Positions 3,637-20,859 are shown, numbered from the stretch's first letter. The stretch is DNA of 26,531 nt from Thermoproteota archaeon (GCA_046733815.1 JBKPPX010000296.1:1-26531), one strand, 5' to 3'. Notes: a model not told the origin generated them from the letters alone. Made by a program: numbers and translations.

Positions 3637-4662
3637 TCAGTGTTCTGCCCGACGATCAATTGTATTGTTCAATTCAGCACCTGTTCCTATTAATACAACT
3701 TTTACTCCTGTCTCGGCTTCTATATTTTGAATAAATTCTTTCGCTTCATATGACAACTTGTTAAATTCCCTTATACTTCCATCTTCCGGGAAAATGACAT
3801 CGAGCTTAGTAACGGCCAGTTGTGTAGCACTATTCAATCTTATGGCTTTCTTTGCTAGGTTCATATCAAACGGTGATGCTCTTCTCTCTCTGCCTGTAAC
3901 GCTTCCATATTCAAGCCACCCCCTTTTCTTTGCCTCCTCGCGACTAACCTCATTTTGCAACGGACCGCCTCCAACACGTGTGACATAAGATTTGAATACA
4001 ACAAGTACTTCATCTATCTTTTTCGGACCGATACCAACATCCGAACATATTCCTGAAGCAGTCACATCCTTAGAGGTTACATATGGATATTCACCATAAT
4101 AGAGAGATAGGAAGGTACCTTGAGTACCCTCCACAATCACATTTTCTTTGTTGTCCAAGGCGTAATTAACAGAGGCGCTTACATCTTCAAGATATAAAGA
4201 CAGCTCATTAATATCTCGAGCAAGGCTTAGGAGTCGAGAAGCACGATCGGCGTTTGCGGGGCCTGTTCCACTTCCTGTCGTACCTATAAAGGCTTTAAAG
4301 TGGTTCTGTACAGTATCTTTTTCTATGTGTTTTTGATCAATTATTCCGCACTGGGCGTCAATAAAGGTCCTATCGCCTGCATTGAATATTTCTATTTCTT
4401 TTAGTAATATATCAGGATTAATCAGAACGCCCGCACCTATCAACAATCGCGTCGAGAGGTTTATTGCTGCACTAGGCAACATTCTAACTTTGTAAATTTT
4501 ACCTTCGTGAACGAATGTATGGCCTGCGTTAGGCCCTACTCCGCCTCTAACAGCAATTGAATAGTTATCTTTTTTGGCAAGATATGCTATTATTTTTCCC
4601 TTACCTTCATCGCCATAGAATCCTCCAACTGTTACAATAGATGGCATATAAAATCGGTTCAA
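3637..4662 (-). CDS. purA: Adenylosuccinate synthetase (short archaeal form)
   Basis: GGFYGDEGKGK, GPNAGHT, GTTGSGTGPA, EGTQG, YPYVTS, TRVGGGP, TGRERR and TKLD motifs. Likely start is the ATG at 4647 (MPSIV). Confidence 0.98.
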   Translation of the reverse strand: MNRFYMPSIVTVGGFYGDEGKGKIIAYLAKKDNYSIAVRGGVGPNAGHTFVHEGKIYKVRMLPSAAINLSTRLLIGAGVLINPDILLKEIEIFNAGDRTFIDAQCGIIDQKHIEKDTVQNHFKAFIGTTGSGTGPANADRASRLLSLARDINELSLYLEDVSASVNYALDNKENVIVEGTQGTFLSLYYGEYPYVTSKDVTASGICSDVGIGPKKIDEVLVVFKSYVTRVGGGPLQNEVSREEAKKRGWLEYGSVTGRERRASPFDMNLAKKAIRLNSATQLAVTKLDVIFPEDGSIREFNKLSYEAKEFIQNIEAETGVKVVLIGTGAELNNTIDRRAEH

Positions 4663-20414: not shown

Positions 20415-20729
20415 TCACTTCATTCTAACTTTAATAATATCAGTATGATCTTCTAATCCAATTTTCAGCCTGAAGCGCAGCCATCTCCATGAACTTACAG
20501 CAGTACTTATAATTTTGCCAGCTTTGAGTTCATCAAATGCTTGGTTAACCTGATCGAATTTATATTTTCCACAGACCACTGATTGAATTTTTCCAGACCT
20601 TGCCAGAGCGACTAGGTTCACCAAATCGGCAAACTTATTCCTGTGCGCACGTATCCTCAGTTGCTTTCTAAATAAATTGATAGCTAATGTTCTATCTAAA
20701 AAAATATCTGAAATGCAAGAACTTGGCAA
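20415..20729 (-). pseudogene. C-terminal remnant of a Zn-dependent (MDR) alcohol dehydrogenase
   Basis: FADLVNLVALARSGKIQSVV..KYKFDQVNQAFDELKAGKII..AV matches the C-terminus of MDR ADHs; the catalytic N-terminal three quarters are absent. Confidence 0.7.
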
Positions 20730-20742
20730 GCACTTAGCTATA

Positions 20743-20750
20743 TTTATAAG
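20743..20750 (+). promoter_or_regulatory. TATA box of the C/D sRNA
   Basis: TTTATAAG ending 21 nt before the sRNA terminal stem. Confidence 0.6.
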
Positions 20751-20771: not shown

Positions 20772-20859
20772 GGGATGCTGATGAAGATTCGGAAGAGCCG
20801 ACTGATGAGTAGTAATTAAACTAGCAAATGACGAGGATTATGAGTTCCTGAGGCATCTC
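20772..20859 (+). ncRNA. Dual-guide box C/D methylation-guide sRNA
   Basis: Terminal stem GGGATGC/GCATCTC; C box TGATGA 20779-84; D' CTGA 20802-05; internal hairpin TAGT/ACTA; C' ATGACGA 20828-34; D CTGA 20848-51; both guides match recognisable RNA targets. Confidence 0.88.

Follow-up and report, generated by a model that had tools for sequence, protein, structure and literature searches.

Which ribose, if any, does a box C/D guide select when its complementarity to a tRNA is clear and its register is off by one? The question is raised by a 26,531-nucleotide stretch of DNA from a Thermoproteota archaeon (GCA_046733815.1, JBKPPX010000296.1; contig C296 of host genome G000), hereafter called the window. 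The initial annotation read positions 20835–20851 as a D guide antisense to the anticodon arm of elongator tRNA-Met, in which the strict count of five nucleotides from box D (N+5) falls on U33 rather than on C34, and it proposed an unusual Um33, a shifted register, or a chaperone role. Both the antisense relationship and the count stand on the tRNA that the host encodes. Comparing the guide-to-D spacing in orthologous sRNAs, as the initial annotation had suggested, uncovered two classes, with 12-nt and 13-nt spacers. These comparative data frame the choice among the three options without settling it. Wobble guides for tRNA-Met are already a known kind; the spacing variation and its recurrence are new.

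Anatomy of the sRNA

Positions 20835–20851 comprise a 13-nt D spacer (20835–20847, GGATTATGAGTTC) and its D box (CTGA at 20848–20851), which lie within a complete box C/D sRNA on the plus strand at 20772–20859. The elements are as follows.

20743–20749 (+): TATA-like box TTTATAA; the first G of the sRNA follows 22 nt downstream
20772–20859 (+): whole box C/D sRNA, about 88 nt; covariance model R1, 73 bits, E = 2.7e-20
20772–20779 (+): terminal stem, 5′ strand GGGAUGCU, pairing with 20852–20859
20778–20784 (+): C box CUGAUGA; AUGA is invariant in alignment A1
20785–20801 (+): D′ spacer, 17 nt, guide core GGAAGAGCCG(A), antisense to 23S rRNA GUCGGCUCUUCC
20802–20805 (+): D′ box CUGA, from sequence and ortholog alignment
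20806–20827 (+): D′–C′ linker, 22 nt, with a small hairpin, UAGU 20810–20813 / ACUA 20820–20823
20828–20834 (+): C′ box AUGACGA, aligning with the C′ box of Rfam sR-tMet
20835–20847 (+): D spacer, 13 nt, GGAUUAUGAGUUC; 20836–20846 antisense to G30–C40 of elongator tRNA-Met
20846–20847 (+): UC between GAGU and box D; a single base here in 12-nt orthologs
20848–20851 (+): D box CUGA, then R + GCAUC(C), as in orthologs with a GGAUGC-type stem
20852–20859 (+): terminal stem, 3′ strand GGCAUCUC, pairing with 20772–20779

The layout has the features of an archaeal box C/D sRNA: C and D boxes with a terminal stem of up to 8 bp (20772–20779/20852–20859), D′ and C′ boxes, and two spacers of at least 12 nt. 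Five of six stem pairs keep pairing through two-sided changes in the 69-sequence alignment, and the distance from the TATA-like box to the sRNA, as read in the window, fits an archaeal promoter. The architecture is nonetheless unusual for archaea in its 17-nt D′ spacer and its long structured linker of 22 nt, both of which exceed the usual archaeal lengths; the linker of orthologs is about 4–33 nt long. A D box read one base further upstream was considered and rejected, as only CUGA (or CCGA) followed by R and the stem strand is conserved. No Rfam family matched across the window at the gathering threshold, and at a relaxed threshold only sub-threshold C/D families appeared. Neither ARAGORN nor Rfam (gathering threshold) found a tRNA in window positions 1–26531.

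We interpret the locus, the D guide of the window included, as a candidate for a genuine dual-guide box C/D sRNA with its own transcription in a Nitrososphaeraceae archaeon; the sRNA would assemble with Nop5 and fibrillarin and presumably also with L7Ae. The host genome (2.26 Mb, 35% GC, 72% complete) encodes fibrillarin (294 bits) and Nop5 (228 bits) in adjacent genes on contig C423, and the sequencing runs containing the locus are soil DNA metagenomes only. The host genome was also searched by two regex scans and, at relaxed stringency, with a covariance model, and no other convincing box C/D sRNA appeared. Guides may be scarce in this organism, or their boxes may be degenerate. Likewise, no second, correctly spaced tRNA-Met guide was found in the host, where no other 10-mer site precedes a D box.

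Pairing with elongator tRNA-Met

ARAGORN reported 10 tRNAs in the host assembly and the Rfam tRNA model 25, and the latter set was used. The relevant CAU tRNA (C75:913–987) has the acceptor stem GCCGGGG and the arm UUCGA-CUCAUAA-UCGAA, and its gene is without intron. Thus the CAU elongator foreseen by the initial annotation exists and pairs with the guide, but the arm deduced from the guide, GGA-CUCAUAA-UCC, is not the encoded one, and the predicted 13-bp duplex shrinks to 11 contiguous base pairs. These span G30–C40 and consist of U·G30 plus 10 Watson–Crick pairs (A31–C40), with C29 and G41 mismatched to the guide. Numbering upstream from box D, nt 1 is C20847, nt 2 is U20846, nt 3 is U20845, nt 4 is G20844, nt 5 is A20843, and nt 6 is G20842; nt 5 lies opposite U33 (N+5) and nt 6 opposite C34 (N+6). 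The duplex is therefore longer than the 10 bp to the elongator tRNA-Met anticodon arm looked for in a Cm34 guide, whereas the second property of such a guide, C34 opposite the fifth guide nucleotide, is present in 12-nt orthologs and absent in the window.

The assignment of C75:913–987 as the elongator follows from the separate existence of the other CAU tRNAs. A related complete genome (G007) carries an elongator-type tRNA and a separate Ile2-type CAU tRNA (GGGCCCA..., arm ACCGG/CCGGU), and the host initiator lies on contig C43 at about 3660–3800 (AGCGGGG...CCCCGCU, arm GCGGG-CUCAUAA-CCCGC, apparently with two introns). This initiator-type tRNA was missed by both ARAGORN and the Rfam tRNA genome search. 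No elongator tRNA-Met gene other than C75:913–987 was seen in the host. Initiator and Ile2-type tRNAs have G31–C39, whereas the elongator has A31–U39, and the guide mismatches the former two at position 39. The conserved U and A of the guide opposite positions 31 and 39 thus indicate that the elongator is selected over the G31–C39 tRNAs.

The tRNA-Met arm is identical in 28 of 30 genomes of the family, and the paired stretch G30–C40 in all 30. The initial annotation had supposed that the guide would see only a spliced tRNA. This does not apply to the intronless host gene, nor does it apply to a relative with an interrupted gene (G020; L246, G020:C1:336030–336161), in which a 17-nt intron follows the anticodon loop. 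The precursor of that tRNA still reads GACUCAUAAUC, and the intron opens with AUC, as does the 3′ exon. The guide can therefore pair before and after splicing, and the splice site is ambiguous by sequence. Among the outgroups, tRNA-Met was found only in family f4 (G093), where the arm is CCAGA/UCUGG, an intron lies in the 5′ strand region, and G30, A31, U39, and C40 are kept; the patterns used did not recover the tRNA-Met of the small-genome family f13.

Considered alone, the pairing is weak evidence (p about 0.04): of 1,000 shuffled guides, 44 also find an 11-bp match somewhere in tRNA and rRNA loci totalling 13.9 kb. The exact 10-mer target ACTCATAATC occurs about seven times in the host genome, which is the chance level, and its frequency is similar to that of a control word in each genome examined. 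Conservation, rather than pairing alone, is what raises the D guide above chance. Across five relatives, the 10-mer recurs at a matching locus only in the tRNA-Met gene and in the sRNA gene itself. It has no site within the rRNA of these relatives, and its matches lie nowhere near rRNA operons, so the better rRNA target for which the initial annotation left room did not emerge. Because the host assembly is without 23S rRNA, the 23S sequences of relatives served for the rRNA checks.

An order-wide sRNA family with two spacings

The family search combined BLAST with a pattern scan across 185,579 species genomes and with a covariance model from 69 unique sequences. It detected the sRNA in 107 of the 151 genomes sampled from the order, with a presence of 22/23 in the family of the host and 23/23 in a family with genomes of 1.1–4.3 Mb (mostly about 1.6 Mb). 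This is a new, uncurated, order-wide sRNA family of ammonia-oxidising archaea that couples a tRNA-Met guide with a guide to the peptidyl-transferase region. The pattern scan that yielded the 69 unique members required the 10-nt core GAUUAUGAGU, so the invariance of the core among them is by construction. With BLAST and the covariance model, which did not require it, GAUUAUGAGU was unchanged in most genomes, and variants appeared in four genera.

The 69 unique members fall into two spacing classes. In type A (42 members), the D spacer has 12 nt and reads N-GAUUAUGAGU-N before box D; nt 2–11 are complementary to A31–C40, nt 1 and nt 12 are freely variable, and C34 sits at N+5. In type B (27 members, and the class of the window's sRNA), the spacer has 13 nt and reads N-GAUUAUGAGU-(U/C)-N. 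Spacers of 11 or 14 nt were absent from the orthologs examined, and the tRNA target stretch G30–C40 is identical across the two types. Nucleotide 2 is U or C in 27/27 pattern-defined type B members. It is A in G144 and G018, where it is unable to pair with G30 and the sole 10-bp duplex is A31–C40. Read from its sequence, the type A layout matches point for point the duplex in crystal structures of the archaeal enzyme, in which nt 2–11 form 10 bp capped at both ends by two Nop5 C-terminal domains, and the unpaired nt 1 and nt 12 contact Nop5 helix α-9′ (PMC9670817).

To place the two types on a phylogeny, we used a maximum likelihood tree of concatenated Nop5 and fibrillarin from 42 genomes. 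The A/B state changes seven times on this tree, with six changes forced by well-supported branches; as the tree comes from a quick method and two proteins, the exact switch count may shift. The non-monophyly of type B should not, as enforcing monophyly costs 552 log-likelihood units (p-AU 5e-49). For example, G144 (ACCUGA) is nested in a type A genus that otherwise reads ACUGA, G009 is nested in type A clade g15, and the type B genus g18 is the sister of the type A genus g14. All outgroup families (f13, f6, and f4) are type A, and the complete genomes G007 and G020, of two genera, have the 12-nt form. Slippage is suggested by the inserted base, which is mostly a second copy of a U (GAGU becoming GAGUU) or of a C (CUGA becoming CCUGA); positions 20846–20847 mark the site of the 1-nt insertion in the window, as 12-nt orthologs carry one base there. 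Type B showed no consistent correlation with C-box flanks, linker length, or a possible extra K-turn-adjacent pair. Apart from G013, every one of the 17 type B genomes on the tree has an intact core (16/17).

Some relatives depart from this picture. G017 (L281, G017:C10:13245–13335) keeps the D′ guide and carries an unrelated D spacer, UUUAGAUAGAGGAUAC; G013 (L032, G013:C179:285–366) has a C opposite A35 in its D guide; and in G006 (L030, G006:C244) the sRNA is interrupted after the D′ box and its 3′ half is disrupted. In these three, the D guide is lost or decaying. G151 and G015 have a mismatch at nt 2.

A D′ guide with a fixed register

The second guide addresses the large ribosomal subunit. 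Its target stretch, GUCGGCUCUUCC, adjoins the peptidyl-transferase centre, and the 23S target CGGCUCUUCC has a single occurrence in the 23S rRNA of each of four relatives. The D′ guide would place the C of CGGC*UC at N+5, a nucleotide that we take to be the equivalent of E. coli C2510. The D′ register, core + 1 nt + D′ box, is invariant in 69/69 members, with no indel. The fixed D′ register against the free D register means that selection treats the two guides differently. Family f13 (L271–L275, L267) has a compact 69-nt version of the sRNA, with a 4-nt D′–C′ linker and the D box AUGA, and its D′ guide is GGAAAAGCCG in place of GGAAGAGCCG; a matching change in the 23S rRNA is implied.

The D′ guide resembles that of U49/SNORD49 (RF00277), in which GGAAG(A/U)GCCG + 1 nt + box is antisense to the same stretch of the large subunit. 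The window's sRNA is not a member of that family (19.6 bits against a gathering score of 37). As the likeness is limited to the D′ guide and the boxes, convergence is indistinguishable from common descent.

Relation to known tRNA-Met guides

The closest counterpart of the D guide is found in the haloarchaeal sR-tMet (RF02163), whose D guide directs Cm34 of elongator tRNA-Met (Joardar et al. 2011, as cited in PMC6601510). Both RNAs have the C′ box AUGACGA followed by a D guide antisense to the anticodon loop of elongator tRNA-Met, and the cmscan alignment matches the 3′ half of the window's sRNA box for box. The D′ halves differ, and the score of 16.8 bits (E = 0.66–0.99; gathering score 50) does not make the window's sRNA a member. 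The spacer of sR-tMet has 12 nt (..CUAUGAGUG + CCGA) with C34 at N+5, whereas the window's sRNA has one base more before box D. In Joardar et al. 2011, sR-tMet is reported to pair with an intron-containing precursor. Its consensus guide, GCCCUAUGAG, fits the exon–intron junction, whereas the guide of the window matches the mature intronless AUAAUC.

In the compact C/D sRNA sR41 of Pyrococcus (RF01126), the D guide reads GCCCUAUGAG + 2 nt + CUGA and puts C34 at N+5. By its consensus, sR41 appears to be the Pyrococcus tRNA-Met wobble guide that is described in summary in PMC7994747. It has a 12-nt spacer and a K-loop-sized linker, as opposed to the 13-nt D spacer, 17-nt D′ spacer, and 22-nt structured linker of the window's sRNA, which scores 18.6 bits against a gathering score of 54 and is not a member. 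The sub-threshold cmscan alignments to sR41 and sR-tMet alike show one base inserted just before the D box of the window.

Human SNORD97/SCARNA97, whose D-box antisense element selects C34 of elongator tRNA-Met (PMC6601510), are box C/D guides of the same functional class. They are eukaryotic, intron-encoded, and much longer, place C34 at the fifth position, and have no detectable sequence relationship to the window's sRNA. Human Cm34 protects the anticodon loop from cleavage and is dispensable in human cells (PMC6601510). By its complementarity, then, the D guide would share the function of sR-tMet and SNORD97/SCARNA97, and of sR41 as far as the sR41 consensus tells, as a putative tRNA-Met wobble guide.

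Two comparisons with Pyrobaculum place the family further. Orthologous guides in that genus keep their interaction region while an indel moves the predicted site, a phenomenon termed target migration (PMC6009581). Those cases concern rRNA sites in a single genus, whereas the shift described here concerns a tRNA anticodon loop, with the wobble base on one side and the U-turn uridine on the other, and has occurred at least six times across a family. As far as the summary in PMC7994747 goes, Pyrobaculum tRNA guides are typically partnered with an orphan guide; the window's sRNA instead joins an rRNA guide and a tRNA guide in one RNA.

Which ribose would be methylated

The ancestral function would be that of a C34 guide, because the 12-nt orthologs put C34 at N+5, in agreement with the crystal-structure duplex, sR-tMet, and sR41. 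The 13-nt form has probably kept this function. What the sequences show is how the sRNA is built, what it would pair with in the host, that two spacings exist and have been exchanged repeatedly, and that the D′ register is fixed; protein assembly, any methylation, and the nucleotide that receives the methyl group are inferences. Our tentative preference, held at somewhat less than an even chance, is that the methylated ribose in the 13-nt form is most likely still that of C34, with the extra base bulged or bridging to box D. The D guide would unwind the anticodon arm of elongator tRNA-Met and pair with it. A one-base insertion beside box D, the duplicated U, would have made the spacer 13 nt, and the same 10-bp duplex as in the 12-nt form (A31–C40, now guide nt 3–12) would occupy the Nop5-capped channel. 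The weak terminal U·G30 pair would be frayed, and two unpaired bases rather than one would bridge to box D. In the host, this shift of frame from nt 2–11 to nt 3–12 swaps a terminal U·G for a terminal G–C. In G144 and G018, where nt 2 cannot pair, only the A31–C40 duplex can fill the channel. Site specificity, moreover, draws on both K-turns (Hardin and Batey, PMC1635284).

Several points run against methylation at C34. The N+5 rule is experimentally robust: the site is set by the distance from box D/D′, slack is taken up by looping at C/C′, and in reconstitutions the methylation site stays in place however far the pairing extends (PMC7229835); taken strictly, this distance rule targets U33. 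Most 13-nt lineages have a U or C at nt 2 that can pair with G30, which fits the canonical nt 2–11 frame. That the D′ register never varies suggests a register-sensitive enzyme, and the dispensability of Cm34 in human cells (PMC6601510) makes drift possible.

The strict ruler would have the RNP of the 13-nt lineages, which comprise several soil ammonia-oxidising genera, make Um33 on elongator tRNA-Met. The canonical nt 2–11 frame would pair with G30–U39, and the two extra 5′ bases would loop out on the C′ side. We regard this as unlikely, although it has much to recommend it: U33 is the N+5 nucleotide, the published reconstitutions fix the site from box D/D′ (PMC7229835), all 27 pattern-defined 13-nt members have a U or C at nt 2, and Pyrobaculum offers a precedent for indels that shift the predicted site in a conserved interaction region (PMC6009581). 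The weightiest reason for favouring Cm34 is that Um33 would remove the U-turn hydrogen bond that the 2′-OH of U33 donates to N7 of purine 35, here A35 (PMC5372741). With a single elongator tRNA-Met gene seen in the host, a modification crippling that tRNA should not arise and persist six or more times, and yet the origins of the 13-nt form number at least six, and whole genera are fixed for it. Nor does nt 2 of G144 and G018, unable to pair with G30, fit the canonical frame. The literature searched makes no mention of "Um33" as a tRNA modification, and it is not known to have been reported in any tRNA. In Ashraf et al. 1999 (RNA 5:503), an anticodon stem-loop with Um33 is reported to barely bind ribosomes. 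If Um33 were nevertheless made, it would amount to ribose methylation of the universally conserved U-turn uridine through a guide slipped by one base.

Somewhat more doubtful still is that the 13-nt form directs little or no methylation, whether through neutral drift, because the pairing serves a chaperone or sequestering role, or because the sRNA is maintained simply on account of its D′ guide. As the D′ guide already requires boxes C and D, the conservation of these boxes is uninformative about the D guide. Decaying D guides in G013 (mismatch to A35), G017 (replaced), and G151 and G015 (mismatch at nt 2) are in keeping with this reading, as is the strictly fixed D′ register beside a free D register; this contrast of registers, however, does not discriminate among the Cm34, Um33, and little-methylation readings. 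Human cells without Cm34 show no growth phenotype (PMC6601510), and conserved Pyrobaculum guides mismatched at N+5 suggest interaction-only roles (PMC6009581). On the other side, the core is intact in nearly all 13-nt lineages, among genera whose Nop5 is ~55–65% identical to that of the host, which argues against neutral drift, as drift should have eroded the core. Moreover, the spacers have only 12 or 13 nt, lengths that are reported to be the working range of the enzyme (Yang et al. 2016, PNAS).

It is very improbable that the complementarity to tRNA-Met is not the functional target and that the D guide acts on another RNA (initiator, Ile2, or an mRNA) or has no target at all. In favour of this are the weakness of the shuffle test by itself, the loop CUCAUAA common to the initiator and Ile2-type tRNAs, which can form 9–10 pairs including two G·U, and the Cm34 reported in the initiator tRNA of M. 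maripaludis and P. furiosus (PMC7668247). Against it, the conserved guide positions opposite A31 and U39 discriminate the elongator from the initiator and Ile2-type tRNAs, the 10-mer recurs at a matching locus only in the tRNA-Met and sRNA genes of five relatives, and sR-tMet and Pyrococcus sR41 have the same layout.

A milder alternative is that the archaeal C/D enzyme may position its target by the 10-bp duplex and not by a strict count from box D, so that the 13-nt form would be an "N+6" guide. The family amounts to a natural spacing experiment in which the same guide and the same tRNA sequence are combined with 12-nt and 13-nt spacers that have been switched at least six times. Given this recurrent switching next to a fixed D′ register, one of three possibilities must hold: an extra base next to box D relaxes the N+5 rule; these lineages tolerate Um33, a modification that is unreported and supposed to be harmful; or it is of little consequence to elongator tRNA-Met which site is methylated, or whether any is.

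Neighbouring reading frame

Upstream of the sRNA, an adjoining open reading frame of 104 amino acids lies on the minus strand (20415–20729) and has a weak, sub-threshold match to the C-terminal part of a zinc-type alcohol dehydrogenase. It accompanies the sRNA at 26 related loci and could represent either what is left of a gene or a conserved small protein.
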